This document shows positions 1,634 to 20,510 of a stretch of DNA of 64,000 nt, one piece after another. This stretch comes from a virus, in IMG/VR virus record IMGVR_UViG_3300029959_000004, positions 32,001-96,000 of that record, one strand, 5' to 3'. The translations under genes were made by a program, and so were the position numbers. Position 1 is the first letter of the stretch; each line of letters begins with the position of its first letter. The notes under the pieces were generated by a model that was given only the letters and a program-made list of their open reading frames with translations, was not told the origin of the DNA and searched no databases.

Positions 1634-1762
1634 TTTCTAGTTTTATATAAACTCTTTTTAATAATTCTTTAAAAAGTTCTCTTCCAATAGAATCTTTTCT
1701 TAATTTTGTTTCTGTCTCTTTCCATACGTCTAACACTGCTTTTGCGTTGTCTTTAGACATTC

Positions 1763-2005: not shown

Positions 2006-2261
2006 AGTATTTTTTACAAAATTTAACTATTTCATAAGGTTGTGTTATCTTTTTATGTTCTTTTATCAACACACATTCATCTACGTACATAAATGTCAAC
2101 ATATATTCGTTAGTAGGATTTTTATATATTGTTTTTGCTCTTTTTATACTATCTGCCCAAAATCCCCATATTTTATTCCTATCTATTTTAACTATAATAC
2201 AGTAAGATTTAGAAGGATATTTATAAGTAATCAAATCACCAATCTTAAATTCACAATTCAT
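1998..2261 (-). CDS. KOW/SH3-like small protein with C-terminal tag
   Basis: FKIGDLI; ends ITQPYEIVKFCKKYYV; paralog of 3016..3306. Confidence 0.75.
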   Translation of the reverse strand: MNCEFKIGDLITYKYPSKSYCIIVKIDRNKIWGFWADSIKRAKTIYKNPTNEYMLTFMYVDECVLIKEHKKITQPYEIVKFCKKYYV

Positions 2262-3001: not shown

Positions 3002-3058
3002 ACATTCTCTCCTTTTTAATAATATTTCTTACAGAATTCTACTATACCAAATGGTTTA
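2995..3058. repeat. 64-bp perfect direct repeat, copy 1
   Basis: Identical to 6302..6365; covers tag codons, stop, SD and the next start codon. Confidence 0.95.
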
Positions 3059-3306
3059 ATTATTCTATTTACTAATTTAATTGTACTAAAAGGCATATAT
3101 CCATAAAAAGTTCTAAATTTTTTTTCATTATTATGTTTAAACATATATAAAGCTTCTTTTATTGTGTTTCCCCAATAACCGTACGCTTTGTTTTCTTCAA
3201 TTTCTTTAATTACACAGTATCCTTGCGTACAGTATCCTTGAAAAATATCATCATAAAGAGAAGTTCTTATCTTATAAAAGACAAAGTCACCAATCTTAAA
3301 TTTCAT
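3016..3306 (-). CDS. KOW/SH3-like small protein with C-terminal tag
   Basis: MKFKIGDFV; ends IIKPFGIVEFCKKYY. Confidence 0.75.
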   Translation of the reverse strand: MKFKIGDFVFYKIRTSLYDDIFQGYCTQGYCVIKEIEENKAYGYWGNTIKEALYMFKHNNEKKFRTFYGYMPFSTIKLVNRIIKPFGIVEFCKKYY

Positions 3307-3629
3307 TTATAGTATCTTCTACAAAATTTTACAATACCATATTCTTTGATTGTTTTCTTTATTTCTCTATTAACAATTACAAAACTACCATACCAAGCAC
3401 TAAAATCTCTAAAATCATCGCTTACAGAAGCAAGTAAAGGATTATTTAATCCATCTTCACCGCACATATGATGTCTTGCGGTAGTTTTTAATATTTTATG
3501 TACTTTATATAACTGATTGATTGTTCCATAGTTATCTGTATCATGATAATTAGGAGAAATCCAAGATTTTCTACTAACATATCTAACAATGTCTCCTATT
3601 TTTAAATCTTTTGGATGTACAAATCTCAT
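3303..3629 (-). CDS. KOW/SH3-like small protein with C-terminal tag
   Basis: LKIGDIV; ends TIKEYGIVKFCRRYYK. Confidence 0.75.
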   Translation of the reverse strand: MRFVHPKDLKIGDIVRYVSRKSWISPNYHDTDNYGTINQLYKVHKILKTTARHHMCGEDGLNNPLLASVSDDFRDFSAWYGSFVIVNREIKKTIKEYGIVKFCRRYYK

Positions 3630-3630
3630 A

Positions 3631-4635
3631 TTATTTTTGTGGTAGAGAACCGCTTTCCATATAAGCTTTGTTGCAATCTTTACATATCATTGTTCCTCCC
3701 TCTAGAGAAATTTCTATCATTTCTTTAGTTGGAAAGAACTCTCCACAACTTTCACAACACTGTTCAGATTCTATATCTTCTTCGTTATTTTCTACTAATT
3801 TAATTTCTCCCTTTTTCACAGCTTTTCTACATTTTTTACATAAGTTGAAAGAAATAAAATCTCCTTTTGTTTCAGTTTCAATATCTACCGTCATTACATA
3901 TTTCATCTCATTACATCCTTCACATAAACCTTCAAAAACTACAGATTTGCCTTTGTTATCTACTTTATCTCTCACGGAGCTGTTTGTATTATCATTATAG
4001 TTTTCTTCTCTTTCATAATTATGAAAACCCAACAAACCGGCTCCTCTTTCAAAATAAGAACAAGATTTATAACCACTGTTTGAATAAAATATATTACTTT
4101 CTGTTTCCCAAGCACCAAACTTCTGAATTTCTCCATTGTTGTGCATAATAGCTAACTTATCTCCTTCAATAAATACGTTAATTAGTTTAATTACCGCTTC
4201 ACTGTGAAGATTATTTTTTATTGATTCGTCAGATAAAATATCTAATATAAACTTTTGTGTATCTGAGAATTTTTCGTGATGACCGTAGTTAGTAATTACT
4301 CCATTGTGAGCTACTGCAACTTGACAGATTAACTCCGGTTTTCTTAACAGTTCAGTATTCTTAGTTATAGGAAACGGATGCCTATTTCCTATATCTTTTA
4401 GACCGTGAGTAGCGAATCTAAAATGAATTACTAAAGCGTCTTCTTTAGAGAGATTATCTTTACACCAAGCGATCATATGTTTTGCATTAGTAAAGTCCTT
4501 CTTAATACAAACTTCATTAGAATTTACTTTCCAGTACATAATACCTATTCCGTCACTATTTCTAGTTTCTGCGTATAATAAATAAGCTTCTTTAGGAAAA
4601 TCTACTCCCTTCTCTTTAACAGCAATTAAGCACAT
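3631..4635 (-). CDS. class II (Ntn) glutamine amidotransferase with C-terminal Zn ribbons
   Basis: N-terminal MC; DGIG; HFRFATHG; NRHPF; AHNGVI; SDT; four CxxC pairs at the C-terminus. Confidence 0.85.
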   Translation of the reverse strand: MCLIAVKEKGVDFPKEAYLLYAETRNSDGIGIMYWKVNSNEVCIKKDFTNAKHMIAWCKDNLSKEDALVIHFRFATHGLKDIGNRHPFPITKNTELLRKPELICQVAVAHNGVITNYGHHEKFSDTQKFILDILSDESIKNNLHSEAVIKLINVFIEGDKLAIMHNNGEIQKFGAWETESNIFYSNSGYKSCSYFERGAGLLGFHNYEREENYNDNTNSSVRDKVDNKGKSVVFEGLCEGCNEMKYVMTVDIETETKGDFISFNLCKKCRKAVKKGEIKLVENNEEDIESEQCCESCGEFFPTKEMIEISLEGGTMICKDCNKAYMESGSLPQK

Positions 4636-6308
4636 AATTTTTCTCCTTTCAGATGTTTTAACATTGTTCCATATTTTTCCTGGTCTTTAGCCCAATCTAT
4701 AAACAACTTCCAACTATTTTTTCTATATTCTCTTTCTCCTATTACTAGAGACGTAACTCCAACAACTTTTACAAAATAACTTAGAGCTTCCATAAATTGT
4801 AATATAGCAGTTATTCTTTTTGGATTTAATGTTCCTCTAAACATTCTTATTTCTACAGTATTAGTAGAACTATTCAAATTTAAAGCCCAATATCGACCAC
4901 TTTGAGAGCTATCGTTTAATATATCCTTTGTGTTAATTGTCTCAAATTTACAATAGTTTTCCCCAACTCCCTTTCTTCTAGACAATTCTTTAAGTTTATC
5001 TTCATTTTCTTTAAAGAATAATCTCATTTTGGTAATTTCTAAATCTTCAAAGAAATCTCTTGAGAGATGTATATGTAATCCACATTTACCACTCTCTTCT
5101 GAGGTAAATTCTTGTTCTTTCATCCATCTTAATATCTTGTTTAATTTCATTTCTCTGTGTGCATAAGATAGAGTAAACGGATGAGTAACTATCTCAAAAC
5201 CATTTGGAACGCTTCCATCGTGCTTGAGATAGTAATGTTTTTCTACTTTTTCTTTTTTAAGAAAAGAAATTAATTTTGAAGAAGCTTCTTTTTCTGAAGA
5301 ATCTCTTTGTACCTCTAATTCTAATCCCATAAATAAAGAGGCTTTCTGATCTTCTGAATTTTCCTTCTCCCATTTTAATTTTTTAAATTCTGGAGAGGGT
5401 TTATATGAATAATCGTGAATCAATCTTTCTTCTGCGGTAGAACCCTCTTCAGAATAACAATCTTCACAAAAAAGAAATCCATCACTTTCTCTAGTTCTCA
5501 TATCATCAACACGAAAAGTATCTCCACAGGCGTTGCATACAGAAAATCTTTCACTAAAACAATCACTACAATAAACGTTATCATCCGTTCCCGTGAATAT
5601 TTCACCTGAATGACAATCTAATTCACAATCACAAGAATAACAAGTAGCGAAATTTTCAGAGTAACAATCATCGCAATAACGATCTCCTTCTTCCGAAGTA
5701 AGCAAATCATCAATATAAAAATTTCCCTCACAACACGAACAAGAACCAACTTGTTGATTATAACATTCTTCACACCAAATTTTACCATCAAACTCGTGAG
5801 AACATTCTTCTTTCTCAATATTTTTTTTACACGATGAACATTTTACAATTTCCTTTGTTTTGAGTTTTCTCATGTTTTTCTCCTTTTCAAAAATTATATG
5901 AGCTTCTGTATTGTCTAAATTTATTAACCAAGAATATCTCCACTTGCCCGGTCTTTCTTTAATTCCAGTACCACCGTTAAGAGTATTGTTCCATAAACAG
6001 ATATATTTATTTTCATTTCTAGTAAAAATTTCTCCCACTTTTCCATAAATATATTTTTTATTCGCAATAGTTTCTGTGTCGTTCGCATTAGTTGCAATTA
6101 AATCACCAACGTTTATTTTATTAGAAATCTCATTTATATAGTATTTATTTACCTTCTCAATACCGCACTCATATAATTCTATTTCTAAATCATTTTTAAG
6201 AATACTTGTCAAGTACTTTGTTTCTCCTTCTGTTACTTCAGTTTTTGACAGTATTTTTATCAAAGTACTTTCGTTTTTTATTCTTGCTATTTCTCCCAAT
6301 TTAAACAT
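4626..6308 (-). CDS. putative amidoligase (COOH-NH2 ligase, glutamine-synthetase-like) with four tandem double-CxxC repeats
   Basis: GLELEV, HDGSV, GFEIVTHP, CGLHIHLSR, RYWALN, TVEIRMFRGTLN. Confidence 0.85.
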   Translation of the reverse strand: MFKLGEIARIKNESTLIKILSKTEVTEGETKYLTSILKNDLEIELYECGIEKVNKYYINEISNKINVGDLIATNANDTETIANKKYIYGKVGEIFTRNENKYICLWNNTLNGGTGIKERPGKWRYSWLINLDNTEAHIIFEKEKNMRKLKTKEIVKCSSCKKNIEKEECSHEFDGKIWCEECYNQQVGSCSCCEGNFYIDDLLTSEEGDRYCDDCYSENFATCYSCDCELDCHSGEIFTGTDDNVYCSDCFSERFSVCNACGDTFRVDDMRTRESDGFLFCEDCYSEEGSTAEERLIHDYSYKPSPEFKKLKWEKENSEDQKASLFMGLELEVQRDSSEKEASSKLISFLKKEKVEKHYYLKHDGSVPNGFEIVTHPFTLSYAHREMKLNKILRWMKEQEFTSEESGKCGLHIHLSRDFFEDLEITKMRLFFKENEDKLKELSRRKGVGENYCKFETINTKDILNDSSQSGRYWALNLNSSTNTVEIRMFRGTLNPKRITAILQFMEALSYFVKVVGVTSLVIGEREYRKNSWKLFIDWAKDQEKYGTMLKHLKGEKLCA

Positions 6309-6365
6309 ACATTCTCTCCTTTTTAATAATATTTCTTACAGAATTCTACTATACCAAATGGTTTA
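6302..6365. repeat. 64-bp perfect direct repeat, copy 2
   Basis: Identical to 2995..3058. Confidence 0.95.
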
Positions 6366-6583
6366 CTATATTTATTAATCATTTCTAAATCATCTATAGA
6401 AAAACCTGAACATCTCGTATTATCTCTGAAAAACCTTACCACTATAGAATTTTCTCTTTTATCCATATCTATGTCTTTATGAAGAGCTCCTAACATAAGT
6501 ACTTTTTCTCCCACGCAAGGTAAAGAACAGGGACGAGTACAAAACTTTCCTCTTGTTTTTATTCTAGCTTTGCTATTAATCAT
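6323..6583 (-). CDS. small protein with C-terminal tag
   Basis: Ends SKPFGIVEFCKKYY. Confidence 0.7.
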   Translation of the reverse strand: MINSKARIKTRGKFCTRPCSLPCVGEKVLMLGALHKDIDMDKRENSIVVRFFRDNTRCSGFSIDDLEMINKYSKPFGIVEFCKKYY

Positions 6584-6604
6584 TGTATTGTCTCCAAATT
6601 TAAC

Positions 6605-6665
6605 GAAGAGACCATAATATTCGGATAAGGGAGATATAAGAACCGTAATATTAGAGGGTCTCTTC
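6605..6665. other. intergenic long imperfect hairpin
   Basis: Nested pairs GAAGAGACC/GGTCTCTTC, TAATATT/AATATTA, CGG/CCG. Confidence 0.65.
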
Positions 6666-6669
6666 CTAG

Positions 6670-6927
6670 TTATTTCTTTTCAATAGAACGCATAAATCTA
6701 ACTATACCATATTCTCTTATTATTTTCTTTGTAGAAAGAATAAAAGAATCTTCATACCAACTCCAATTATTCTCCAAAACATTGTAAACTTTTTTTCCGG
6801 GAGCAGTTGGAAAGTTGAATATTTTAGATATGGTAAATGTTTTGCCTATAAATGCGTTCATAATTTTATTCCAATCAAATTTACCTTCTTTTATTATTTT
6901 TATCTTATCTCCAATTTTATATTTCAT
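6670..6927 (-). CDS. KOW/SH3-like small protein with C-terminal tag
   Basis: YKIGDKI; ends IIREYGIVRFMRSIEKK. Confidence 0.75.
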   Translation of the reverse strand: MKYKIGDKIKIIKEGKFDWNKIMNAFIGKTFTISKIFNFPTAPGKKVYNVLENNWSWYEDSFILSTKKIIREYGIVRFMRSIEKK

Positions 6928-7176
6928 TTATTTATAGTTCTTCTTGCACCATTTTGCAATATTATATTCTTTATTTTTTCGTGTATTTACAAGTTTAAAT
7001 CTCCAATCGAAATAATCTTCTATTTGAAGTCTGTCAGAAATAACTTGATAAAATAGAGTATTTCCGCTCATATAACTATTTAAAATAGTATATTCTTTAT
7101 TTATAGTTAACTCACCAATATTAAGCCCACGATTTGAAACACAAATAACCTTAGTGTTTATTTTAAATATTTGCAT
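6928..7176 (-). CDS. SH3-like small protein with C-terminal tag
   Basis: ELTINKEY motif shared with 9754..9972; ends NKEYNIAKWCKKNYK. Confidence 0.7.
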   Translation of the reverse strand: MQIFKINTKVICVSNRGLNIGELTINKEYTILNSYMSGNTLFYQVISDRLQIEDYFDWRFKLVNTRKNKEYNIAKWCKKNYK

Positions 7177-7825
7177 ATTTTAAACTCTTCGCTTTAGAAA
7201 CAAATTTCAATACCCAAAATATATACATTTTCATAGTTTCATAATTTAAAGTTCCATTAAACAATCTAAATTCAAGAGTTTTATAGCTGGAGTTTCTAAT
7301 ACAATCAATATTAAGAGCGTAATATTTTCTATCTTCTCTCCAGAAATCATCTTTGCAATACTTTCTAAACTCTGAAATATTATTTATCGTTAAGTTTTTA
7401 AGATGTTCAGGTAAAGGATGACAATATGAACACAATCTATTCCGTTGTACTTTAAATTTTGTTATAATAGCTTTTTGATTAACTAAAAATCTTTTAATTA
7501 CATTCGTTATTTCTTCGTCTGAAAAGTTTGATATATTAACGTGAATATGTAACCCACAAGTACTATTAATATATCCTTCGTTTGTTTTTATCATTTCTAA
7601 TAATTTTTTGATTTCTAATAACGATTTTTTGTTGTAAAAAAGATAATTTTTATATGAAGGTTTATATTCAAGTCCGTTGTCTAGCGAACCATCTTCTGTT
7701 ATTTCCCATCCTTCTAAGTAATGTTCTCTATTCCAACGTTTATTATTTATTATATCATAAGTATCAATATCGTCAGGATATTCAACCTCTATTTCTGGAC
7801 TAAATCTAATCTGTGTTATTCTCAT
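7163..7825 (-). CDS. second putative amidoligase (COOH-NH2 ligase)
   Basis: PEIEVE, EDGSL, GLEY, CGLHIHVN, KYYALN, TLEFRLFNGTLN. Confidence 0.85.
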   Translation of the reverse strand: MRITQIRFSPEIEVEYPDDIDTYDIINNKRWNREHYLEGWEITEDGSLDNGLEYKPSYKNYLFYNKKSLLEIKKLLEMIKTNEGYINSTCGLHIHVNISNFSDEEITNVIKRFLVNQKAIITKFKVQRNRLCSYCHPLPEHLKNLTINNISEFRKYCKDDFWREDRKYYALNIDCIRNSSYKTLEFRLFNGTLNYETMKMYIFWVLKFVSKAKSLKYANI

Positions 7826-7835
7826 TTCTCTCTCC

Positions 7836-8102
7836 TTATTTTTTATTTATATTATTCATAAAATTCACGATTCCATATGGTTTAATATTTCTTTTAACTA
7901 ATTCTAGATGATGTTCCCAAACACCGTACCTATTTTGTGAGTCCCAATAAATATATGGAGAACAGTTTCTTGTTATGTAAGCTATCTTAAATTTTTTGTT
8001 TAATACCCAACCCGCTCCTCCATAAGAACAGTCATCATCAGATCCTTTAGATGTTAATACACATTTTACTTTATCTCCAATCTTAAATTTGGGGTTATTC
8101 AT
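7836..8102 (-). CDS. KOW/SH3-like small protein with C-terminal tag
   Basis: FKIGDKV; ends IKPYGIVNFMNNINKK. Confidence 0.75.
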   Translation of the reverse strand: MNNPKFKIGDKVKCVLTSKGSDDDCSYGGAGWVLNKKFKIAYITRNCSPYIYWDSQNRYGVWEHHLELVKRNIKPYGIVNFMNNINKK

Positions 8103-8349
8103 AAAATTTCTTACAGAAATTAACTATATTATATGGTTTAATTGTCTTCTTTTTTACTAATACAAAACTATCTTCATTAATCCAATCTTCAAAATCTGGA
8201 TTATCTAAATCTCTAGTTTTTACAGCATCAAAATTATTATATTTTCTTCGTCCTATCTCTGTTATTACAGTTTTTCTCCCTATATTTTCTAGAGAAACAC
8301 CTCTACCACTTCTTATAACTTTTACTATGTCTCCAACTTTAAATTTCAC
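8095..8349 (-). CDS. KOW/SH3-like small protein with C-terminal tag
   Basis: FKVGDIV; ends IKPYNIVNFCKKFYE. Confidence 0.75.
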   Translation of the reverse strand: MKFKVGDIVKVIRSGRGVSLENIGRKTVITEIGRRKYNNFDAVKTRDLDNPDFEDWINEDSFVLVKKKTIKPYNIVNFCKKFYE

Positions 8350-8375
8350 TTAAACTTCTCCTAATCTTAATATAT

Positions 8376-8501
8376 AATCTGACTAAAAAGGTGACTAACT
8401 ACCAATTTTTAGTTCTTATCGTGCTTTATATCAACTGATGTTGATAAAGGCGAGCAGAACCTTTTTAGTTTCGTTAGATTTTCACTAACTCTTCAGAGAT
8501 T
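8376..8501 (-). ncRNA. hammerhead ribozyme, type I, with large insertion in stem III
   Basis: AAUCU-CUGAAGA-GUUAG(ugaaaau)CUAAC-GAAA-CUAAAAAGGU...ACCUUUUUAG-UC^-AGAUU; predicted cut between 8381 and 8380. Confidence 0.85.
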
Positions 8502-8873
8502 TTACGCTTTTACCAAGCGTTCCGAAGTCCATTCAGAATCAATTAATGACATTTCATCATCTGTGATAGATTGAGTATCCTCTACAGGATGAAATCCATT
8601 AGTTACTTCTCCTATTGAAACATCAAGAAGAGCAACTAATTTTCCTGAACGAATTAGCTGATATTTTCTATCATCAGAATCTTTTAAGACGTCTCCCGCT
8701 TTGAAAGTAACAATCTCCGGTACTAACTCAAATCTTGAAGCTTTAAAAGACACCTCTCTTCCAGCTTCGTTAATAATAACGAAGTTGCCATTTTCCTTCT
8801 GACGAATTACGTCATAAGTCTTACCAATCGCTAAATCTCTTGTTCCAGTTACATAAATAACTTTAACTTTCAT
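8502..8873 (-). CDS. tandem SH3/KOW-like domain protein (no tag)
   Basis: LAIGKTYDVI...SRFELV followed by FKAGDVL. Confidence 0.65.
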   Translation of the reverse strand: MKVKVIYVTGTRDLAIGKTYDVIRQKENGNFVIINEAGREVSFKASRFELVPEIVTFKAGDVLKDSDDRKYQLIRSGKLVALLDVSIGEVTNGFHPVEDTQSITDDEMSLIDSEWTSERLVKA

Positions 8874-8913
8874 TTCTTCCTCCTCTTTTGTTACTGGTTA
8901 ATAATAAATCATC

Positions 8914-9330
8914 TTATAGATGATCTGTTTTTCTCATTTCCTTTAGAAGCTTAACTATACCTAACCTATTTTTAGCTTCCATTAACTGCATTAACTTTTC
9001 CGCAAGATAGTCTTCTTCTGTTTCATATTTCTCTAAGAATTCTATCTCCCTTTCATTCTCCTCTACTTGTTTCTTTAATACATTAACTAAATTCTTTAAG
9101 TATTTAGCTTTTTCCTTTCTAGAAGCTAGACAGAAATCGTCTTTTTTATATCCTTCATAATCATAGAATATATTAAAAGTTGTATTTTTGTCACTTTTTA
9201 CAGAATAATATCCAACGTAGACCGCAGTAATTATTAAAACTTGTCCTTCATAACCAACAGTACCACTGTTTCTTCCTTTTATTAAAAGAATCTTGTCACC
9301 AACACTAAATTTATCTAAATCATTATCCAT
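8914..9330 (-). CDS. KOW-like domain plus coiled-coil protein
   Basis: FSVGDKI; C-terminal heptad-rich region. Confidence 0.6.
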   Translation of the reverse strand: MDNDLDKFSVGDKILLIKGRNSGTVGYEGQVLIITAVYVGYYSVKSDKNTTFNIFYDYEGYKKDDFCLASRKEKAKYLKNLVNVLKKQVEENEREIEFLEKYETEEDYLAEKLMQLMEAKNRLGIVKLLKEMRKTDHL

Positions 9331-9406
9331 TTTATCTCCTTTTCTTTACAGTTAATAATATATAACTTTTATTTAGTAGTGTCTCACTTTATTCCTCCTT
9401 TCAATA

Positions 9407-9742
9407 TTAAAACCAAAATATAGGTCTATATATCGCATTTGGTAAACATCTTTGCATATTCTTTGCACCTATTGGATTACAACTATGTATTATTATTTTA
9501 CAGGTTAGATTTTTATCTTCAAGATATTTAGCTACCTGATAACCCGTATTTTCATCGTTTGAGTTGACAAATATTCTATTTCCTAAATCGTGATCTAAAC
9601 ATATTAAATCCCAATTTAAATCTCTTTTTAGAATATTAATAGCGTCTTTAGCTGTTTTGACAAATGTTATATTATGCCCAACATATTTTCTAGAGAAAGA
9701 ATCGTGTCTTGTTTGCATATCGTCAAGAAATAGAATTTTCAT
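9407..9742 (-). CDS. cyclic-phosphate-processing receiver-like domain protein
   Basis: LFLDD...CLDHDLG...TGYQVA...IHSCNPIG signature. Confidence 0.75.
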   Translation of the reverse strand: MKILFLDDMQTRHDSFSRKYVGHNITFVKTAKDAINILKRDLNWDLICLDHDLGNRIFVNSNDENTGYQVAKYLEDKNLTCKIIIHSCNPIGAKNMQRCLPNAIYRPIFWF

Positions 9743-9753
9743 TTAATTCTCCT

Positions 9754-9972
9754 TCATTTATCATACATTTTTTTACAAAATTTAGATATTTCAAACTCTT
9801 TAACTGTATTTTTTTCTTTTATAAGAGAAAATCTAAAAGACATATAACCATATTTTCTACCAAGATTGTTTATTATATAAACCATATCGTCGGATTTTGA
9901 CAAAACATAATAGATTTTATTTATAGTTAATTCAATCCCACGTCCTGAATTATCTTTACATTTAACTTTCAT
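9754..9972 (-). CDS. SH3-like small protein with C-terminal tag
   Basis: Ends TVKEFEISKFCKKMYDK. Confidence 0.7.
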   Translation of the reverse strand: MKVKCKDNSGRGIELTINKIYYVLSKSDDMVYIINNLGRKYGYMSFRFSLIKEKNTVKEFEISKFCKKMYDK

Positions 9973-9978
9973 ATGTTT

Positions 9979-10242
9979 TTAAAGAGATTTAATTAAATCA
10001 CCTCTCATAAAAGCTACTATCGGATATTCTCTGATAACTTTATTTTTTTCTATCAACTTCCAATTATTCAGGCAAGAACAACCACAATCGTGAGTGACTT
10101 CTGTCATTCTTCTTTGATTACTTGCATATAATATTTTACTTTCTTTAACCAATAAGTATCTTAGAGTGTAAATCTGTCCTTCCTTCGCTCCTGAACAATC
10201 AGACAATATTCTTATTTTATCTCCCTCTTTAAACTCTCGCAT
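9979..10242 (-). CDS. KOW/SH3-like small protein with C-terminal tag
   Basis: FKEGDKI; ends VIREYPIVAFMRGDLIKSL. Confidence 0.75.
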   Translation of the reverse strand: MREFKEGDKIRILSDCSGAKEGQIYTLRYLLVKESKILYASNQRRMTEVTHDCGCSCLNNWKLIEKNKVIREYPIVAFMRGDLIKSL

Positions 10243-10495
10243 TTACATTCTCCAAGAATTTTACTATGGGAAACGGTTTAATAACTTTCTTTTTCTTTTC
10301 AATTAATTCTATCATAAATTCTTTAATTAAATCACCCGTTTTTTCTTCGTGATTATAACTTGAATCCCATATTATAATATATTCATAAACGGAAAAGTAT
10401 CTTACGATAGTTCCTGTCCATCCTGTTTGAGCATAAGGTAGCCAAAGATCGTATGATATTACTACCTTTACTCGGTCTCCTTTTTTAAATTTCAT
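10229..10495 (-). CDS. KOW/SH3-like small protein with C-terminal tag
   Basis: FKKGDRV; ends VIKPFPIVKFLENVNARV. Confidence 0.75.
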   Translation of the reverse strand: MKFKKGDRVKVVISYDLWLPYAQTGWTGTIVRYFSVYEYIIIWDSSYNHEEKTGDLIKEFMIELIEKKKKVIKPFPIVKFLENVNARV

Positions 10496-10754
10496 AGTAT
10501 TCTCTATAATAACTCTTTACTAGATTAAAATTAAAACTATTTATAAATCCATCTAGCATATCGAACCAACAATTAAAAAATCGCTGTAGTTTAGTGGGAA
10601 TTATTTTATATATAATCCAATGTATAAATTCATGAATAAAAGTTTCTATATAATCTATTCCTTTCATATCTTCTCTTATATAGATAGTTTCTTCATCTAA
10701 ATAACCATAAACATTAATATTTTCTTTACTCTTTCTGAAGAGTTGTACACGCAT
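10485..10754 (-). CDS. small HExxH metallopeptidase-like protein
   Basis: IYIRE...TFIHEFIHW. Confidence 0.55.
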   Translation of the reverse strand: MRVQLFRKSKENINVYGYLDEETIYIREDMKGIDYIETFIHEFIHWIIYKIIPTKLQRFFNCWFDMLDGFINSFNFNLVKSYYREYYEI

Positions 10755-11247
10755 TAGACTTCTCCATAATTATTTTATAAAGTTTTTCATTAGATTTATC
10801 TAACTCTTTAACTTTATCAGTTAATTCTTGTATTTTTTCAGTTAATATTTCTACCGAACGTCTTTGATTTACACCAACTTTATTTTGTCTTAATTCATAT
10901 ATTTCTATTTGTTTTAAACTATTTTCCATATCTAAATCTTTGCATCCACTTAATAAAAACAAAGATAATATTATAAAGGCGATTTTCTTAGTTGTTTCTC
11001 TCATAAATCTGACTATTTCATATTCTCTTATTATTTTCTTTTTCTCAACTAATTCTAAATCACTCTCTAAAAAACCGGAGCATCCTCCAGCTTTCTTCTC
11101 AAAATTAGATACATAAACATAACAATCATAGATTTTCGGATTACTGACTATTCCTATTAAACCAACAAATGGGCAAAAATCACCACATACAAAACAATCA
11201 TTTTTTTTAACAACCTTTACTTTATCTCCAGTCTTAAATTTGCTCAT
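10726..11247 (-). CDS. KOW-like tagged protein fused in frame to a lipoprotein-like coiled coil
   Basis: Likely start MSKFKTGDKV at 11247; internal IIREYEIVRFMRETT, then KKIAFIILSLFLLSGC (lipobox). Confidence 0.65.
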   Translation of the reverse strand: MSKFKTGDKVKVVKKNDCFVCGDFCPFVGLIGIVSNPKIYDCYVYVSNFEKKAGGCSGFLESDLELVEKKKIIREYEIVRFMRETTKKIAFIILSLFLLSGCKDLDMENSLKQIEIYELRQNKVGVNQRRSVEILTEKIQELTDKVKELDKSNEKLYKIIMEKSNACTTLQKE

Positions 11248-11392
11248 TTTATATATATTACAACACTTTTCCAAGATAAATCTTTTAATCTTTTTATTTC
11301 ATCTATCGCCCATCTAATAAAATCTTCACATTCTGACTGATTATCAAAATTTGCATATCCTTTTTTAAATACCCAATCATAATCTGCCATTT

Positions 11393-11665
11393 TTATCCTC
11401 CTACAGCACAATTTCCACAATCAAAATACATACTTGTATTAGTTTCTCTTCTATCTTTACTTCTTTCAGTATCTATAAAATCTTGCATATTTATAGATAA
11501 CTCTGCTACATTAGTCTCACAATCCGAACATTTAAAATTTATTTTTGTTTTAAGTTCCTTCAACATATCTTTTGGTATATTCTTTAATTTTACATATATT
11601 CTATTTATACCAAACTCGTCTCTACCAATTTTACCAATAAAAGTTTTTAACCCTTTTCCTCTCAT
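11393..11665 (-). CDS. Zn-ribbon hypothetical protein
   Basis: CSDC and CGNC. Confidence 0.55.
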   Translation of the reverse strand: MRGKGLKTFIGKIGRDEFGINRIYVKLKNIPKDMLKELKTKINFKCSDCETNVAELSINMQDFIDTERSKDRRETNTSMYFDCGNCAVGG

Positions 11666-12021
11666 TTTCTTTTTCTCCTCTTCTCATATATATAAATGAC
11701 TAAATAATTATATCTTCCTTCTAAACTTTTATCTATCTGCTCGGGACCAAAACCGCCTACAGAACCAAACAAATGTGCTTCTAATAATTCAATAAGAGCC
11801 TCAGCTTTTGCTGAATATTCTGCGACGCTTTGTGCCCAATCAACTTCAATATGTTGTCTCCACTGATTTATTTGTTGTATATCGTCTTTTATGTCTTTTA
11901 GAATTTTAACAAGAGGAATGCTCATATCTTTATTCATTTTTTCTCTACCACAACCAGTACAAATATTCTTACCTTTTTTATTTCTTTTGATTCCAACCCA
12001 ATTTGTGCAATTACAAGTCAT
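11662..12021 (-). CDS. hypothetical protein with N-terminal Cys cluster
   Basis: ORF track; SD present. Confidence 0.55.
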   Translation of the reverse strand: MTCNCTNWVGIKRNKKGKNICTGCGREKMNKDMSIPLVKILKDIKDDIQQINQWRQHIEVDWAQSVAEYSAKAEALIELLEAHLFGSVGGFGPEQIDKSLEGRYNYLVIYIYEKRRKRK

Positions 12022-12203
12022 TTTATTCTCCTTTTATATACTTGTGTAATATGGGTTATTCTCCTATAAACCAAATTCTTTTGAAGCCAACCCACCAAGA
12101 CGGTTTAGATTCCATAAACTTTCCGCAATGTAGACATCGTAACCAGAAACCTCCCGAAAATCTAACATCCAAATGTAAACAGTTTGTCATCTAAGTCTTC
12201 TTT

Positions 12204-12530
12204 TTAAAATTTAGCAAATCTTTCTATTATACTTTTAGCGTGATGTTGTCTATCCTCATATTTATCACTTCTATACATCAATTCATACCACCACATCATA
12301 GCTTTGTAAGTCCTACCTAATTCTTTAGCTAAATCAAAGAGTTTTTCTTCTTCCTTTATTTCATTAGAAGTTTTTGACTTGAATCTCTCTATTTCCCAGT
12401 CTTCTATAGGTTCCTTAAATCTATCTGCTGTTAAAATAGATTCCTTCTGATAGTTTCTCTTCATATTTCTTTTACCTAAGAACATGGACGCTGTTATCAT
12501 TATTTTAATGATATTTTTCAATAGAAACAA
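12204..12530 (-). CDS. hypothetical protein
   Basis: ORF track; start uncertain. Confidence 0.5.
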   Translation of the reverse strand: MFLLKNIIKIMITASMFLGKRNMKRNYQKESILTADRFKEPIEDWEIERFKSKTSNEIKEEEKLFDLAKELGRTYKAMMWWYELMYRSDKYEDRQHHAKSIIERFAKF

Positions 12531-12720
12531 CAGTTTCCAAAACTTCTTCTAAATGATATTTATCCTTTTTCCAGATAAAATCTCCACATGAGCTAATATA
12601 ATATGTATTTATTTTAATCCATTTAATTTCTTTGTTTTCAATAGCTCTAACTAAATCTTTTAGAATATTTCTTTTAAATCCTTTTATTTTAACATTGTTT
12701 AAATTTTTGGGAAATGCCAT
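12505..12720 (-). CDS. hypothetical protein
   Basis: ORF track; starts 1 nt after the rtcB stop. Confidence 0.5.
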   Translation of the reverse strand: MAFPKNLNNVKIKGFKRNILKDLVRAIENKEIKWIKINTYYISSCGDFIWKKDKYHLEEVLETVVSIEKYH

Positions 12721-12721
12721 A

Positions 12722-14968
12722 TTAATCTCCTTTAATTACAGCCAAAGGGCTTAATTCCACAAGTATTTCTACTAAATCCGACTGATTTTTCATAACATCT
12801 TCAATTTTCTTATACGCTCCAGAAGCCTCTTCTAAATTATTTACATTTCTAATACCGTGAATAATTCCTTGATCGTCCAATATCTTAATTTCTTCTTTTA
12901 GATTTAATTGACGACAAGCCTCTTTTCTTCCCATAACTCTACCTGCACCGTGAGAACAACTTTCAAAGCTTTCTTTGTTTCCTAAACCTTTAACTATATA
13001 AGACTTAGTTCCTTGAGATCCCGGTATTATACCTATTGTTCCTTCACGAGCTAATGTTGCTCCTTTTCTATGTACTATTACATTCTCTCCAAAGTGATTT
13101 TCCCATATTGCGTAATTATGTGCTATATTTATTGTTGCTTTACCGCAACCGGTTTCTTGATTGTTTATGTCTTTTAGATAGAATCCTTCATCGTTAAATT
13201 CTTTGTTAAATATCTCTACTATATTACTCATCATTAAAAACCTATTAGCTAAAGCAAAATCCACACAATACTGCATTTCCAACATATAGTCTTTAGCTTC
13301 CTGAGTTTCTATAGGTAAGAAAGCCAATTCACATTCTTTAGGAACATAAACATACCACTTACCGTTTAGGTTCTTTGCTAACTCATTATAATAGTTAGCT
13401 ACTTTATATCCTAAGTTCCGACTTCCTGAATGTATCATAATCCAGATATTATTCTCGGTATCTTTTTGAATCTCAATAAAATGATTTCCCCCTCCTAAAG
13501 TACCGATTTGTTTTAACGCGTTGAAATATTCTTTTTTAATAACATTATAGTTTTCTAACATATCTCTAATTGTTTCTGCTTTAATTGGCATTAAATTTTC
13601 ATCTTGTCTTTCTTTATGACTTCCGTCACGCCCGTTTCCAACAGGAATAACTTCTCTAATCTTTCCCATTATCTTCTTTAAAGTTTCTCTATCTAATTGT
13701 TCTGATTTTAAAGAAGTCTTAACCGCACACATACCGCAATTATGAACAAATACCCCAGAAGATAAGGCAAAATTATGATATTTATCAATAGTTAAACAAT
13801 AAACATCTTCTTTTTTATTTATTAGTTTAATTGAAATAATTTTATGATTTTTTCTATTTTTATTCCAATAAGCTCCAAAACCATATTTTTTACCAATTTC
13901 AGAAGATTTGACTCTTCCTTTTTCAGATTTGTTATATTGAATTAAAAATTTCTTTCCTCTTTCTCCAGCTAATTTAGCTTGTTCTTTAAATTTTTCAGTT
14001 TTTGAATAATTAATCCAATTTTGTATTGCGTTCTTTTTTACAATTTCTTGGAAATCTTTTCTTTGATGTAATTTTCTCATATTTTCTGATGCCATTTTAG
14101 AAAATAAAATGGGATTATTCTTTCTTGCTATTTTAAATCCAACGATACCTAATTTAGAGTTTTTACCAACATTTTTATAATGTATTTCCCAATGTTTTTT
14201 CCAATTAACTCGTTTTATGTTTGTAGGGTTATTGTTATATTTATTAAAATCTATATGGTGTCTAACTCCTTTAGTTTTTTTATAAATACCATTTAATATA
14301 TTAAACTCATCTGCTAAAATATGAATATAGCGATACTTATTATTCTTAGGATTATAAATTACATTATAATCTTTCATTTTTTCTTTTTTAAATTGATGCT
14401 CAAATTCAATATCTTCCACTTCAAATGCTTTATTAATGTAAATTGGCATTAACGATTGTCCAATTTTTAATTTTTTCGCTCTAATTTCTTTATTTTCTCT
14501 ATCATAAAATATATGATCTTTAGTGCATTTAATTATTTCATTATTATCCAATTTTATTTCTAAAAGTTCGTTGGCAATTCGTGTTTTTCTGGGACTATTA
14601 ATTTTTGATATAACAATATTTGATTCTTTATCCAGAGAGTAACAAAAATTTTCTTTACCTCTATTATATTCTTTAATTAATTCTAAAAATGATAAATCTC
14701 TTCCATCAGTTAATTTAACTTTTGTATCACCAGTAAAACATCCAATATCAACACCTACTGCATTAGGTATTACTACTTTCTTAGTAGCTAATACTCCACC
14801 AATAGGCATACCAAATCCTTGATGACAGTCCGGCATTACCGCTATGTGTTTGAAAGCGAATGGTAAATTGGATAAATTAACCAATTGTTTCACAGCTCCG
14901 TCTTCTATCTCATCTAACCACATCTTTATTGGAACTTTTTGTTTATCTGTATCATATATTACTTTCAT
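12722..14968 (-). CDS. rtcB: RtcB RNA ligase (intein-containing)
   Basis: MPDCHQG, VGVDIG|C, GTLGGGNHFIE, HSGSR, HRKGAT, PGSQG, SCSHGAG, EEASGAYK. Confidence 0.95.
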   Translation of the reverse strand: MKVIYDTDKQKVPIKMWLDEIEDGAVKQLVNLSNLPFAFKHIAVMPDCHQGFGMPIGGVLATKKVVIPNAVGVDIGCFTGDTKVKLTDGRDLSFLELIKEYNRGKENFCYSLDKESNIVISKINSPRKTRIANELLEIKLDNNEIIKCTKDHIFYDRENKEIRAKKLKIGQSLMPIYINKAFEVEDIEFEHQFKKEKMKDYNVIYNPKNNKYRYIHILADEFNILNGIYKKTKGVRHHIDFNKYNNNPTNIKRVNWKKHWEIHYKNVGKNSKLGIVGFKIARKNNPILFSKMASENMRKLHQRKDFQEIVKKNAIQNWINYSKTEKFKEQAKLAGERGKKFLIQYNKSEKGRVKSSEIGKKYGFGAYWNKNRKNHKIISIKLINKKEDVYCLTIDKYHNFALSSGVFVHNCGMCAVKTSLKSEQLDRETLKKIMGKIREVIPVGNGRDGSHKERQDENLMPIKAETIRDMLENYNVIKKEYFNALKQIGTLGGGNHFIEIQKDTENNIWIMIHSGSRNLGYKVANYYNELAKNLNGKWYVYVPKECELAFLPIETQEAKDYMLEMQYCVDFALANRFLMMSNIVEIFNKEFNDEGFYLKDINNQETGCGKATINIAHNYAIWENHFGENVIVHRKGATLAREGTIGIIPGSQGTKSYIVKGLGNKESFESCSHGAGRVMGRKEACRQLNLKEEIKILDDQGIIHGIRNVNNLEEASGAYKKIEDVMKNQSDLVEILVELSPLAVIKGD
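13739..14740 (-). mobile_element. 334-aa intein with HNH-like endonuclease insert
   Basis: Starts CFTGDTKVKL; block B CTKDH; internal RHHIDFNKYNNNPTNI; ends VYCLTI...HNFALSSGVFVHN with Cys at +1. Confidence 0.92.
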
Positions 14969-14988
14969 TTTATATTCTCCTCTTTAGA

Positions 14989-15246
14989 TTAGTTTTTAGA
15001 ATCTTGATGTGAAATTCTATATTCCCAATTCCACCAATCTTCTATAGTTCCTACATAAAATGTACCTTTTCTTTCTACAAAACACAGCCACGCTTTAACT
15101 TCTCTTTTATCTTTTGTAATATCTACAACTATAGGAAACCAAGCAAACCACTTGTGCCATTCTTCAAGTTTTTTTATTTCTTTATCTTTAATTTCTTTTT
15201 TCAATCTTACTATATTTTCTTTTGTATAACCATTAGTCCAAATCAT
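14989..15246 (-). CDS. Trp-rich hypothetical protein
   Basis: WHKWFAWFP motif; its SD lies inside hammerhead stem III. Confidence 0.65.
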   Translation of the reverse strand: MIWTNGYTKENIVRLKKEIKDKEIKKLEEWHKWFAWFPIVVDITKDKREVKAWLCFVERKGTFYVGTIEDWWNWEYRISHQDSKN

Positions 15247-15247
15247 C

Positions 15248-15310
15248 TATTCTCCTTTCGGGCTTATTTAATGCCCTCATCAGTTAATGAATTACATTAA
15301 GAGGAACAAT
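15248..15310 (-). ncRNA. hammerhead ribozyme, type III
   Basis: UUCC-UC^-UUAAUG(uaauu)CAUUAA-CUGAUGA-GGGC(auuaaauaa)GCCC-GAAA-GGAG; predicted cut between 15301 and 15300. Confidence 0.9.
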
Positions 15311-15322
15311 CTAAGTAGTAGA
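15306..15322. repeat. 17-bp perfect inverted repeat, arm 1
   Basis: ACAATCTAAGTAGTAGA is the reverse complement of 15834..15850. Confidence 0.9.
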
Positions 15323-15326
15323 TTTT

Positions 15327-15815
15327 TTAGAAATAACTCTCCATTGTCAATAGACCGCCAACAAAAAACACAAAACCTAAAAATAACCAACACAAAATAA
15401 CTATTTCTCGTCTTTCTATTCCATAACAACCACGAAACACACTATCTATATCTCCCAAAGTATGATCCATCTCTTGACCGCTTATTTGATACATAGCTTG
15501 TTGATATTCAAGAGATTTTTCTTTCATTCTAGAAGTTGTTTCTAGTCTGCTTATTAAAGTATCTAATATCTTTAATTGAGTAGATTTAGTCATTCTTTCC
15601 GTTTTAAAGATATAGTTAGCATGTTCTTCGCTAATATTACTAACTTTTTCTCTGTATTCCTTAAAATACATCAGTTTATCTTTAGCTGTTGAAGCGTCAT
15701 CCGCTAATTTTAAGAACTGTTTATATTTTACCTCGTAGTTATATGCAATATCAACTCCGAGAATTGTTCCTAAAACAAAAAACAATATTGCAAGACCAAA
15801 TAATAGAAATTTCAT
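15327..15815 (-). CDS. two-TM membrane protein
   Basis: Hydrophobic N- and C-terminal helices. Confidence 0.7.
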   Translation of the reverse strand: MKFLLFGLAILFFVLGTILGVDIAYNYEVKYKQFLKLADDASTAKDKLMYFKEYREKVSNISEEHANYIFKTERMTKSTQLKILDTLISRLETTSRMKEKSLEYQQAMYQISGQEMDHTLGDIDSVFRGCYGIERREIVILCWLFLGFVFFVGGLLTMESYF

Positions 15816-15833
15816 TCTTATCTCCTTTTTTGG

Positions 15834-15850
15834 TCTACTACTTAGATTGT
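15834..15850. repeat. 17-bp perfect inverted repeat, arm 2
   Basis: TCTACTACTTAGATTGT. Confidence 0.9.
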
Positions 15851-15858
15851 CAAAGAAC
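15847..15858 (-). promoter_or_regulatory. boxA-like (NusB/NusE) element
   Basis: GTTCTTTGACAA, intergenic; a near-identical copy lies at 23051..23062. Confidence 0.6.
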
Positions 15859-15867
15859 CAAACTTAT

Positions 15868-16194
15868 TTACAAACAGATAGCTTGATGTGTTTTTTCATA
15901 TTCTTCCACGAACTTACATATTATAGTTCCATAGTCTCCTTCTATTCTCTCATTAGTATCTTTCTTAACAATAGACCAAGTTACAACCTGATGTTGTAAG
16001 TAGTTTTTATACTCCATTCTTTGTAGCATTATGTTATTATCCGTAAGAATATGAAAATTCTTTCTATCTCTCATTGCCATTTTCTGTGTTCCCATATAAA
16101 TTTTCCAAGCGTGTTCTTTTGCTCTTGCTAAAACCACATCAATTTGTTGCTTTTCTGTCAGGTTATTTAGCTTATTTACAACGTTTTGATCCAT
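15868..16194 (-). CDS. hypothetical protein
   Basis: ORF track; SD AGGAGG. Confidence 0.6.
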   Translation of the reverse strand: MDQNVVNKLNNLTEKQQIDVVLARAKEHAWKIYMGTQKMAMRDRKNFHILTDNNIMLQRMEYKNYLQHQVVTWSIVKKDTNERIEGDYGTIICKFVEEYEKTHQAICL

Positions 16195-16209
16195 TTTACT
16201 TCCTCCTAT

Positions 16210-16437
16210 TTAATAACCAAATTTATTTAGAGTATTGTCTAAATACGCTCTCATTACAATTAAAGTCGCTAAAAATTCATCATCTACGGTTATTTTTGTT
16301 CCACTTAAAGCTACAATATCGTCTAAAGCTACAATATCGTCAATTCTTTTTAATTTAGAGACCTTTTCATTTAGATTATCTGAAATTTTAAACATTTCAT
16401 CTCTACTTAATTTCTTTTTATTATTTCTCATTATCAA
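16210..16437 (-). CDS. hypothetical protein with internal DDIVAL duplication
   Basis: ORF track. Confidence 0.5.
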   Translation of the reverse strand: MIMRNNKKKLSRDEMFKISDNLNEKVSKLKRIDDIVALDDIVALSGTKITVDDEFLATLIVMRAYLDNTLNKFGY

Positions 16438-16572
16438 ACTCTCTTTCTAATTTAACTATCTCTTCCTCTAATAAAATCTTCTCGTCTTCTGTTAAATCCT
16501 TAAAAATTACGTGAGCCTCTTTCATTAACTTAATAATATTTCCAACTTTTTCCATTTTTATTCTCCTTAATT

Positions 16573-16632
16573 GGTCTCATTCAGTTTTGTATTAAACAAA
16601 AGACGGAGATAATGTAACTCTCCGTTTCGACC
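16573..16632 (-). ncRNA. hammerhead ribozyme, type II, variant core CUGAAUGA
   Basis: GGUC-GAAA-CGGAGA(guuacauua)UCUCCG-UC^-UUUUGU(uuaau)ACAAAA-CUGAAUGA-GACC; predicted cut between 16602 and 16601. Confidence 0.85.
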
Positions 16633-16798
16633 TTATTTAAGTATTAACCAAACTAATATAATAATAGAAATATATATTAGATGTATAAACCAAGGAAGAA
16701 CCTTCCCTCCTAAGACTAATCCTAAGAAGAAAGCTATGAATTTTCCTTTATTCTTATCTTCCACGTCTTCTCCTTTCTTAACTAAGTGGATAGAAAAC

Positions 16799-17825: not shown

Positions 17826-18147
17826 AGCTATCTCCTTTCTAATTCCTAATTTTAAAAAACAATATATCTCTACAAGAAAGTTTTAAACCCTCTCTTATTT
17901 AATCAAAGATTGCATTATTACAGCATATACAATTACTGAACCCACGTTAATTACAATAAACTTAAGCTCTTCTTTCATTCTTTTTTCCTTTTATCTTCTA
18001 TTTTACATAGACAGTCTTTACAAACAAACCATATATTATGTTCCATATTGTAATAACCGCCTTTTATCTCACTTGCTCCTTCTGTTAAACATATATCACA
18101 AGGTATATATATTTTTCTTCTGTCTTCTCTTTTCTGTTCTTCTTGTG

Positions 18148-18426: not shown

Positions 18427-20474
18427 TTTAACTCCTCTGTAATTATATCTTCTTGTTCACCTATATAAAAAGCATCGTCTCCGTATTCTCCATCTATTGC
18501 ACTTAATTTAGTGTCGTCTTCAAATACAAGAGTATAATAGTATCCACACAGACCCTTTCTTTTTTGTATAGTCTTTATTGTTTTTCCTATAAAACGTTTT
18601 AAATCTTCTTCCATTATATTCTCCTCTTTAATTCCTCATTTTTAATAACAAAAAATCTATATAGTATAACTCTATTCCAATTATATTATTTAGGGAATTA
18701 AAATAAGACTATTCCTTTATATTGAAAAGTAAATCCTGATAAATAATGCTTTCACTCTTTATTTTCACTTCTTTAGCGTTTTTTAACTGTCTTTTAACAT
18801 AATTCTCTAAAACTTGTATAGCTTTTTCTCTATCCAATTTTATTTCCATCTTATTTTCCTCATTTAACTAAATTAAATATGGTAATTTCGCCTTTTTTCT
18901 CTTTTTCTAACCATATTGATATATCTTTACGAGAAATTTCTCTTGAGAAGAGTATTCCGTTATGTTTATCATCATTTTTGAAGTATTCTATCACACTAAT
19001 TCTTTTAATCCATCTCATAAAATCATTCATTTAAAACTCCATTTTAACCAACCTTTAATTACTTTTTTTAGCCCTTTTAAAGACTTAATATAAGGTACTT
19101 TACCACATATAAAACATACTTCCCACATATTTAGTGGGTCTGCACAACCACAATTCAAACAAAAAGAATCCTTAGCTGATTTTAACTGTTTTCTTAATTC
19201 AATTAAATCAACACATTCATCCAAAATTATTGCTTCGTCAATTTTCATTCTTGATATGTTTCATCCATTGGGAAGAAACTCTTATTTTCTATTGGTTCAA
19301 TCATTTTCTCCAGTAATAATAGTCCAAATAATACCTATTTTTAGCTTATTAAAGTTTTTTTTCAAAAGAAGACAAATCTCATTTACAGAAAAATTGTTTT
19401 TAATAAAATCTGTAGTTTCTTTATCTTTTAAATAAAAATTTGCCATATCAAATACATACCAATAATGTAACCTTTTATTTTTCAATTCTTCAAGTTTTTC
19501 TAATTTTATTTTTAATTTTTTAGTAAGTTTCATTCTTTACTCCTTATCTCACAATACTTACCTCTTAATTGCTTTAATGACATCCGATTAGCTTTCTCAC
19601 GAGTTAATATCTTCTGATCCTCAAACCATTGAACATATTGCCACTTATGAGTTGGAAGCCAAAAATTTCCCATCTTTTCCTCTCTTTCTACCGCCATATT
19701 TTTGGTGGCAAATTACACATAATCTTTTCCAGTCTTCTCTTCTACTTTTTTTACTCATATTATCATCCATCCTAACTCTTTACAACTCTCATAATACGCT
19801 TTAAAATTAACATTCTGTTGAGTTATTCCATTTTTTAAATCACTTTGATACATATCAAAAATATAATCTAAATCTACCAATCTAAAAAACTTTTTTCTTA
19901 TTTCTTCAATTCTACTCATTTATCTTCTCCGATCATATCTTTAGTCATCTTAACTGCTAAAGCTGTTTTTAAGATTCCATCTGCCGCCACTACCCAAACT
20001 AACTCGTTTTCAGTTTCTATTAGTTTACCAAGCAATTCTGTGGTTTTCCTAAGAAATTCATTCTTATCCGGTGTTAATATCTTATCAACTGAAACTATTA
20101 TATTTCCTTCTCTTATTTCCATATTGTTCTCCTATTATACTACAATAAAATCTAATTCCGTCATAATATCTAATACTTCTCTTTCACTTACCTTGAACGC
20201 TTCAGCTATTTCATAAGTGGACATATTGGTTCTCATCAAAGCATTCTTAATTCCTGCAAATACTTCATTTTCCATCTCACTCCTCCTTTAAAATTGCTCA
20301 ATAACTCTGTAAATACTTATTTTACCTTTTCTTTTTAGTTTATTTTTAATAAATTCTTCAATTTTATCACATAATTCATCTTGTTCCTCTTTACTATTAA
20401 CAACTAATTCTCCCTCAAAATATAAAAATCTTAAATTCTCTTTGTTTTTCATCTTATTCCTCATTATAGATAAC

Positions 20475-20510
20475 AAAAAAACCGTCTACTCCTGTTACGA
20501 ATAGACGGTC
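20475..20510 (-). terminator. intrinsic terminator
   Basis: ACCGUCUA...UAGACGGU stem followed by a U run on the minus strand. Confidence 0.65.

Follow-up and report, generated by a model that had tools for sequence, protein, structure and literature searches.

Do the three hammerhead ribozymes of a phage gene block act together with the RNA ligase RtcB, which is encoded between two of them? The question arises from a 64,000-nt stretch of the IMG/VR virus record IMGVR_UViG_3300029959_000004 (positions 32,001 to 96,000 of the record), referred to here as the window, in which all coordinates are numbered. A first-pass annotation of the window had described one hammerhead of each topology (types I, II, and III), had placed rtcB and a gene for a cyclic-phosphate-processing receiver (cREC) between the type III and type I copies, and had proposed a system in which the mRNA cleaves itself and is re-ligated by the phage enzyme. 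We found that the self-cleavage half of this proposal is well supported by the sequence, whereas the re-ligation half is not. The explanation that we favour is that genuine hammerheads probably cut a polycistronic mRNA at its cistron boundaries and that RtcB and cREC constitute an independent repair module.

Three hammerhead motifs on the coding strand

The genome contains exactly three hammerhead motifs, each lying in an intergenic gap of the coding strand:

16573-16632 (16566-16632 with its 3′ tail), minus strand: type II hammerhead, identified by the descriptor, model R1, and the fold
15252-15306, minus strand: type III hammerhead with the canonical core, identified by the descriptor and model R2
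8376-8501, minus strand: type I hammerhead, identified by the descriptor; its 5′ half alone was matched by model R3

The positions, topologies, and cut sites given in the annotation were borne out, as was the placement of all three motifs on the coding strand behind stop codons. Each motif starts 0-20 nt past a stop codon and ends just before (8-15 nt) the next Shine–Dalgarno sequence. The core elements follow one another in the right circular permutation in each of the three gaps, with three helices around the core; stems I, II, and III measure 6, 4, and 7 bp in the type II copy, 6, 4, and 5 bp in the type III copy, and 5, 5, and 11 bp in the type I copy. All three carry the GAAA...UC arrangement with the A15.1-U16.1 pair and a nucleotide other than G at position 17. 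The lengths of 1301 and 6920 nt calculated earlier for the fragments between the cut sites proved arithmetically correct.

Since the Rfam models gave nothing (see below), a descriptor was written that required the core, GAA, the A15.1-U16.1 pair, any nucleotide but G at position 17, and three stems without mismatches, and that allowed each of the three permutations. When the whole genome was scanned on both strands, the descriptor returned the three motifs and a single other weak match. At the stem threshold met by all three copies, 120 dinucleotide shuffles of the genome yielded 0.017 matches per genome, and 539 permuted decoy cores applied to the real genome yielded 0.037 matches, with a maximum of 1.

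Our own covariance models were constructed from pattern-scanned IMG/VR phage hammerheads unrelated to the phage genome (R1 for type II, n = 32; R2 for type III, n = 38; R3 for type I, n = 31) and run on the full window with the filters off; the resulting E-values are rough. The sole match of R1 in the window was 16566-16632 (27.1 bits, E 2e-5), and the top match of R2 was 15252-15306 (34.3 bits, E 1.3e-7), followed by two partial matches at the other two ribozyme loci. When the 45 kb of the genome outside the window were searched, no further copy was detected by any of the three models. The check with covariance models that the annotation had recommended thus gave a divided result: the type II and type III copies were recovered by our own models, but Rfam reported none of the three, and the type I copy was reached in part by its model and in full by the descriptor alone.

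The record, which originates from groundwater metagenomes and represents an uncultured phage, comprises 109,385 bp with a G+C content of 30.6% and has direct terminal repeats. The genome encodes a tape-measure protein and tail-tip proteins, and no tRNA genes were found in it. The hammerhead region is part of an approximately 24-kb block (24.5 kb) that contains some 45 genes, most of them small and every one on the minus strand. No strong terminator was found on this strand between 16632 and 8376, and a promoter scan gave no signal above expectation (100 found versus 98 expected). A 25-nt motif (RNA strand, UUUUUUGUUAU..AAUGAGGAAU) occurs three times in the minus-strand gaps (17842-17866, 18631-18655, and 20456-20480), with one copy directly behind the only strong terminator of the block (20480-20510); it could function as a promoter or leader signal and thereby define the transcription units.

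Megablast searches of phage records for close relatives gave no match. The terminase has no prophage relative among 185,579 genomes, and for this reason the host could not be assigned. No hammerhead was found in the two terminase relatives of 88-90 kb (G001 and G002).

Architecture and setting of the individual ribozymes

The sequences adjoining the three ribozymes, with open reading frames abbreviated as ORFs, are as follows:

16633-16764, minus strand: 43-codon hydrophobic ORF, the stop codon of which abuts the type II hammerhead
16421-16555, minus strand: 44-codon ORF with its Shine–Dalgarno sequence behind the type II tail
15834-15850, minus strand: 5′ arm of a 17-bp inverted repeat, in the gap upstream of ORF 15327-15815
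15306-15322, minus strand: 3′ arm of the inverted repeat, ending on the first nucleotide of type III stem III
14989-15246, minus strand: 85-codon ORF without relatives, between the type III hammerhead, which it directly follows, and rtcB, which begins 20 nt further on
8095-8349, minus strand: 84-codon ORF of a paralogous FKxGDxV family, starting 31 nt past the type I cut site

The type II copy has the layout GGUC-GAAA-(ACGGAGA...UCUCCGU)-C↓-(UUUUGU...ACAAAA)-CUGAAUGA-GACC, where, as in the layouts below, the parentheses enclose a helix with its loop and the arrow marks the predicted cut site, here between 16602 and 16601. Its stem II (GGUC/GACC) is open and its stems III (16604-16625) and I (16585-16601) form hairpins. 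The CUGAAUGA core possesses one extra nucleotide, so that two nucleotides stand between A6 and G8 where N7 is normally found. Its hammerhead fold coincides with the fold of minimum free energy (z -2.9). Loop I (UUAAU) is fully complementary to the 3′ tail AUUAA (approximately 16567-16571), which allows a 5-bp pseudoknot (P 0.012) placed as in the harvested family, that is, with stem II followed by one spacer A and the tail that pairs with loop I. Eleven further complete type II hammerheads from phages have the same CUGAAUGA core with differing stems, some of them beside canonical copies in the same contig. The loci that carry it are L185, L188, L191, L192, L197, L199, L201, L211, L212, and L215, together with CUGAACGA in L206.

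The type III copy is arranged as UUCCU-C↓-(UUAAUG...CAUUAA)-CUGAUGA-(GGGC...GCCC)-GAA-AGGAG, with the cut predicted between 15301 and 15300. Its hammerhead fold lies within 0.1 kcal/mol of the minimum free energy, and four base pairs could form between loops I and II (P 0.07). AGGAG (15252-15256), which is the 3′ strand of stem III, doubles as the Shine–Dalgarno sequence of ORF 14989-15246, 5 nt ahead of the AUG. This design was encountered in 0 of the 65 loci obtained from the type III pattern scan, which were mostly type II hammerheads just upstream of a Shine–Dalgarno sequence. The product of ORF 14989-15246 has no Pfam or PHROG match and among 5.8 billion proteins matches itself alone. The protein is recorded on three contigs, the longest of which (419,765 bp) is larger than the phage record.

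On its other side, the type III hammerhead borders a perfect 17-bp long-range inverted repeat, the arms of which occupy the two gaps flanking ORF 15327-15815. When the 24.5-kb block was shuffled 100 times, an inverted repeat of such length appeared in 2 of the shuffled sequences. Because the 5′ arm lies in the gap upstream of ORF 15327-15815, the duplex would loop out this single gene, for which no relative was found in IMG/VR. In the RNA, the 17-bp helix would stack against type III stem III, and it could serve as a 3′-end clamp or an RNase III site.

The type I copy reads AAUCU-CUGAAGA-(GUUAG...CUAAC)-GAA-(ACUAAAAAGGU...66 nt...ACCUUUUUAGU)-C↓-AGAUU, with the core CUGAAGA, stem II GUUAG/CUAAC, and an 11-bp stem III that encloses a 66-nt insert; the cut is predicted between 8381 and 8380. 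It has the strongest stems of the three (sum 21 bp versus a null maximum of 16). No loop–loop or tail pseudoknot was evident for this copy. The ORF that follows it belongs to a paralogous small-gene family spread over 1346-11274 of the window, the members of which have in common a KFKxGDxV head at the N-terminus and a conserved tail at the C-terminus (repeat families D1-D7), for example at 8313-8348, 10459-10494, and 11208-11243. The paralogues are interleaved with amidoligase and glutamine amidotransferase-like genes (3631-7825).

The RNA-repair genes and the probable fate of the predicted ends

Searches against Pfam confirmed the identity of the two RNA-repair genes and their location between the type III and type I copies:

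12722-14968, minus strand: rtcB, 748 codons, with an intein at residues 77-410 (nt 13739-14740); PF01139, E 3.4e-106; Intein_splicing, E 1e-17
9407-9742, minus strand: cREC, a stand-alone cyclic-phosphate-processing receiver of 111 aa; PF20274

The intein is inserted in the active-site motif DIG↓CGMC of RtcB (arrow, insertion point) and has the canonical junctions CFTGDT...VHN↓C. The relatives of this RtcB lack the intein insert, and the exteins are 52-62% identical to them. The intein looks intact, and splicing would restore the DIG↓CGMC motif. A phage or provirus of 90 kb related by its terminase (G002) carries an intein-less rtcB and about 10 tRNA genes and has no ribozyme (L025:16887-18236, L026:18761-20000). 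The cREC protein, encoded approximately 3 kb from rtcB, matched PF20274 with 71.5 bits (cut-off 27) and an E-value of 9.5e-20. RtcB seals 2′,3′-cyclic phosphate or 3′-phosphate ends to 5′-OH ends (Tanaka and Shuman 2011, as cited in PMC7824862), and cREC is predicted to open cyclic phosphates and is linked in operons to RNA ligases of both phages and cells (Iyer et al. 2021, PMC7824862). No function could be recognised for the remaining genes of the segments bracketed by the ribozymes.

According to the explanation favoured here, a long leftward transcript of small accessory genes would be produced, and each ribozyme would fold and cut itself during RNA synthesis, splitting the mRNA into segments, each with a 5′-OH and a 2′,3′-cyclic phosphate end. 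The topology would decide which product retains structure. Both ends made by the type II cut would carry a hairpin, the downstream 5′ end made by the type III cut would carry two, and after the type I cut the whole ribozyme would stay on the upstream 3′ end and the downstream gene would receive a bare leader. The type III cut would also release the UUCCUC strand that masks the Shine–Dalgarno sequence of the ORF ahead of rtcB, and the 17-bp long-range helix would clamp the new upstream 3′ end, which would otherwise be unstructured RNA. The likely outcome would be a separate stability and translation of each segment. The intein-bearing RtcB and cREC would most likely serve in counter-defence repair, re-sealing host or phage RNAs cut by host ribonucleases, and their location in the middle segment would be happenstance.

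A number of observations weigh against this explanation. The Rfam hammerhead models reported none of the three motifs, either at the gathering score or at E ≤ 10, in the window, in a 10-kb region, or in the 318 nt with the motifs alone; RF00008, RF02276, and RF00163 searched on the phage's own genome gave no match. Homologous copies of the three ribozymes were found neither in phage records and IMG/VR nor in the genomes of relatives and the sequencing runs; near-identical copies of types II and III were sought with exact patterns, with 0 matches, and the three DNA runs covering the region gave short contigs without usable variation within the ribozymes. A hammerhead with an insertion after A6 (the A6a variant) was active but slow, with low activity, when measured by Perreault et al. 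(2011; PMC3088659), and because of this measurement the type II copy may, by analogy, be slow. The type II stem III hairpin together with the U-rich tract behind it, UCUUUUGUUU, could be an intrinsic terminator. R3 matched the 5′ half of the type I copy alone (8432-8501; 12 bits, E 0.32), giving no full-length covariance support, apparently since the true 3′ strand, displaced by the 66-nt insert in stem III, lies beyond its reach, and a competing rod-like fold (z -5) that buries the type I core is 6.3 kcal/mol more stable than the hammerhead (-32.4 versus -26.1 kcal/mol). As for the ligase, this is the only locus examined in which rtcB follows a ribozyme at such a distance (285 nt), and any tRNA-repair role of RtcB must concern host tRNAs because the phage has no tRNA genes. 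The Rfam result, the insertion in the type II core, the U-rich tract, the rod-like fold, the best type I E-value, and the lack of conservation elsewhere would also fit motifs that are, in part or altogether, inactive look-alikes; the type II copy would then be an intrinsic terminator whose core is disabled, and the type I copy a large regulatory or RNase III-type hairpin in which the core letters occur by chance. We regard this as unlikely, since there are three matches versus the 0.02-0.04 expected, all of them intergenic and on the coding strand, and since independent covariance models recovered the type II and type III copies at E ≤ 2e-5. Moreover, the insertion variant recurs in other complete phage hammerheads, the predicted type II pseudoknot has the family position, and phage type I hammerheads with a 13-14-bp or insert-bearing stem III exist among those harvested (L257, L242, and L286). 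Rfam detected many of the harvested phage type II hammerheads (38-56 bits) and one of type III (32 bits); because it recognises other phage hammerheads, the tool works and the copies described here are atypical for its models. The three copies are A+U-rich, a possible cause of the Rfam miss. Current surveys probably undercount phage hammerheads because A+U-rich copies escape the Rfam models.

The annotation had gone further and suggested that the phage RtcB joins the ribozyme ends, circularising the 1301-nt or the 6920-nt fragment, re-joining neighbours, or skipping a fragment, with feedback through the ligase encoded on the larger fragment. The end chemistry fits, as it is established that hammerheads leave a 2′,3′-cyclic phosphate and a 5′-OH and that these are RtcB substrates (used in PMC4787814 and PMC8782182). 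At the level of sequence, the ribozyme sites would leave one RNA with both types of end, rtcB and cREC lie between two ribozymes with the type III copy 285 nt upstream of rtcB, and ligation to spliced or circular products was raised as a possibility by Perreault et al. (PMC3088659). These authors, however, sought such products and found none, and our comparative analyses argue against the joining. The nearest RtcB relatives (36-72% identity) gave 9 viral and 80 metagenomic loci, amounting to 675 kb, and with the descriptor and the three own models (Rfam on 23 loci) a hammerhead within 6-8 kb of rtcB was found in none of the 89; several of these loci adjoin tRNA genes or clusters. Among 69 whole viral records carrying confirmed hammerheads, 66 are without RtcB, including those with five to eight hammerheads, and in the other three the distance between rtcB and ribozyme exceeds 10 kb (G026) or is about 19 kb (G027 and G052). 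The annotation had itself named missing co-occurrence of rtcB and hammerheads as an outcome that would speak against its proposal, and no adjacent pair came out of the survey. Pairing between the first 60 nt and the last 60 nt of each predicted fragment is no stronger than between random segments, the null fraction at or below the observed value being 0.72 and 0.35, and by inspection the joining of non-adjacent ends rebuilds neither a ribozyme nor an evident structure. A chimeric ribozyme arising from such joining was rejected on the same inspection. Ligation by RtcB into circles or skipped products, with its feedback, thus found no support and is very unlikely. The broader claim, namely that RtcB with cREC acts on the phage's own hammerhead ends, re-sealing them or joining them to circular or spliced forms, and that the type III cut switches on rtcB translation, also has very little probability. 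If true, it would be the first case in a phage of a natural module that rearranges mRNA with ribozymes and a ligase; the link to the ligase would be important if real, but the comparative tests made here go against it, and its basis is the closeness of the genes in one uncultured phage. In a weaker coupling without circles, RtcB would re-seal the cut of each ribozyme while the stems still held the products, and thereby tune net cleavage over time, and/or cREC would open the 2′,3′-cyclic phosphate on the 3′ ends of the phage mRNA and alter their decay or their visibility to host sensors. The hammerhead fold keeps both ends adjacent, the same transcript segment codes for a ligase that accepts such ends as well as for a predicted esterase of cyclic phosphates (PMC7824862), and the Shine–Dalgarno sequence unmasked by the type III cut leads into rtcB. 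We nevertheless consider this coupling improbable, as the same ribozyme–rtcB co-occurrence is missing, cREC was found neither in the 89 other RtcB loci nor in the hammerhead loci scanned, and the basis is gene proximity in one genome alone.

Processing of the mRNA by genuine hammerheads next to an independent repair module is therefore the explanation that we retain as probable. The purpose of bacterial and phage hammerheads is still unsettled, and the locus provides a compact example with three topologies in what is probably one transcript. The unmasking of a Shine–Dalgarno sequence, together with the adjacent long-range helix, would offer a simple model for ribozyme-controlled translation and mRNA end protection. 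The interest of the locus is modest and lies in this design of a Shine–Dalgarno sequence within stem III accompanied by the helix, in the recurrent CUGAAUGA core, and in the blindness of Rfam to such copies.

Relation to known systems

Thousands of hammerheads, type II included, were described by Perreault et al. (2011; PMC3088659), who noted that prophage genes, singly or in short blocks, are often flanked by several clustered hammerheads of differing type. The arrays cleaved in vitro and in E. coli and were proposed to process transcripts to operon- or gene-length mRNAs; triple arrangements were reported in Agrobacterium tumefaciens around ardA and in Clostridium scindens (PMC3088659). The locus described here resembles those arrays in having several mixed topologies in the intergenic gaps of one co-directional block, where they flank genes or short blocks, and in having a predicted stem I/II pseudoknot and the core variant with an insertion after A6. 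It differs from them in that the phage copies are A+U-rich and fall below the Rfam models, that all three topologies occur within 8.3 kb, that the stem III strand of one copy is the Shine–Dalgarno sequence of the next gene and abuts a 17-bp helix, and that rtcB is located inside a bracketed segment. In our harvest, 40 of the 119 phage loci contained 2-8 hammerheads, and ten of them mixed types; at locus L330, two type I copies, one type III, and one type II are found over 6.6 kb. A run of five type II hammerheads in tandem within 1.5 kb, or six to eight of type I within a few kb, were seen at L146:22-1528 (IMGVR_UViG_3300037847_005195), L326, L328, and L234, in records without RtcB. On another phage contig (L124), a type II hammerhead and a twister-P5 ribozyme (1261-1329 and 1535-1593) stand about 200 nt apart on the same strand.

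With the Rfam families RF02276 (type II), RF00008 (type III), and RF00163 (type I) of clan CL00010, the three copies share the core (with one extra nucleotide in the type II copy), the three-helix junction, the cleavage rule (U16.1, H17), and the topologies. Unlike members of those families, no copy reaches the gathering score or E ≤ 10, and their assignment is based on our own models and the descriptor.

The combination of a ligase with a predicted cyclic-phosphate esterase in one gene block is shared with the RtcB/cREC RNA-repair modules of phages (PMC7824862). Unlike in those modules, the RtcB found here bears an intein, tRNA genes are absent, and cREC lies approximately 3 kb from rtcB instead of adjacent to it.

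In viroids, retrozymes, and engineered ribozyme–RtcB circle systems, a stem holds the ends together, and in engineered ribozyme-flanked circles the flanking self-cleaving ribozymes leave a 5′-OH and a 2′,3′-cyclic phosphate on one RNA. As in eukaryotic retrozymes and small circular hammerhead RNAs (PMC4918200, PMC7229834), the flanking ribozymes of the phage locus would leave both of these ends on one RNA. The RNAs of those systems are short and have their ends held by a stem or a rod-like fold, whereas the phage fragments would be 1.3 and 6.9 kb of mRNA without terminal complementarity, and, in contrast to the eukaryotic circles made by ribozymes plus RtcB, no conserved linkage of ribozyme and ligase exists here. 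Altogether, the locus is a new A+U-rich member of a described arrangement of hammerheads, located beside a described kind of RNA-repair gene pair.

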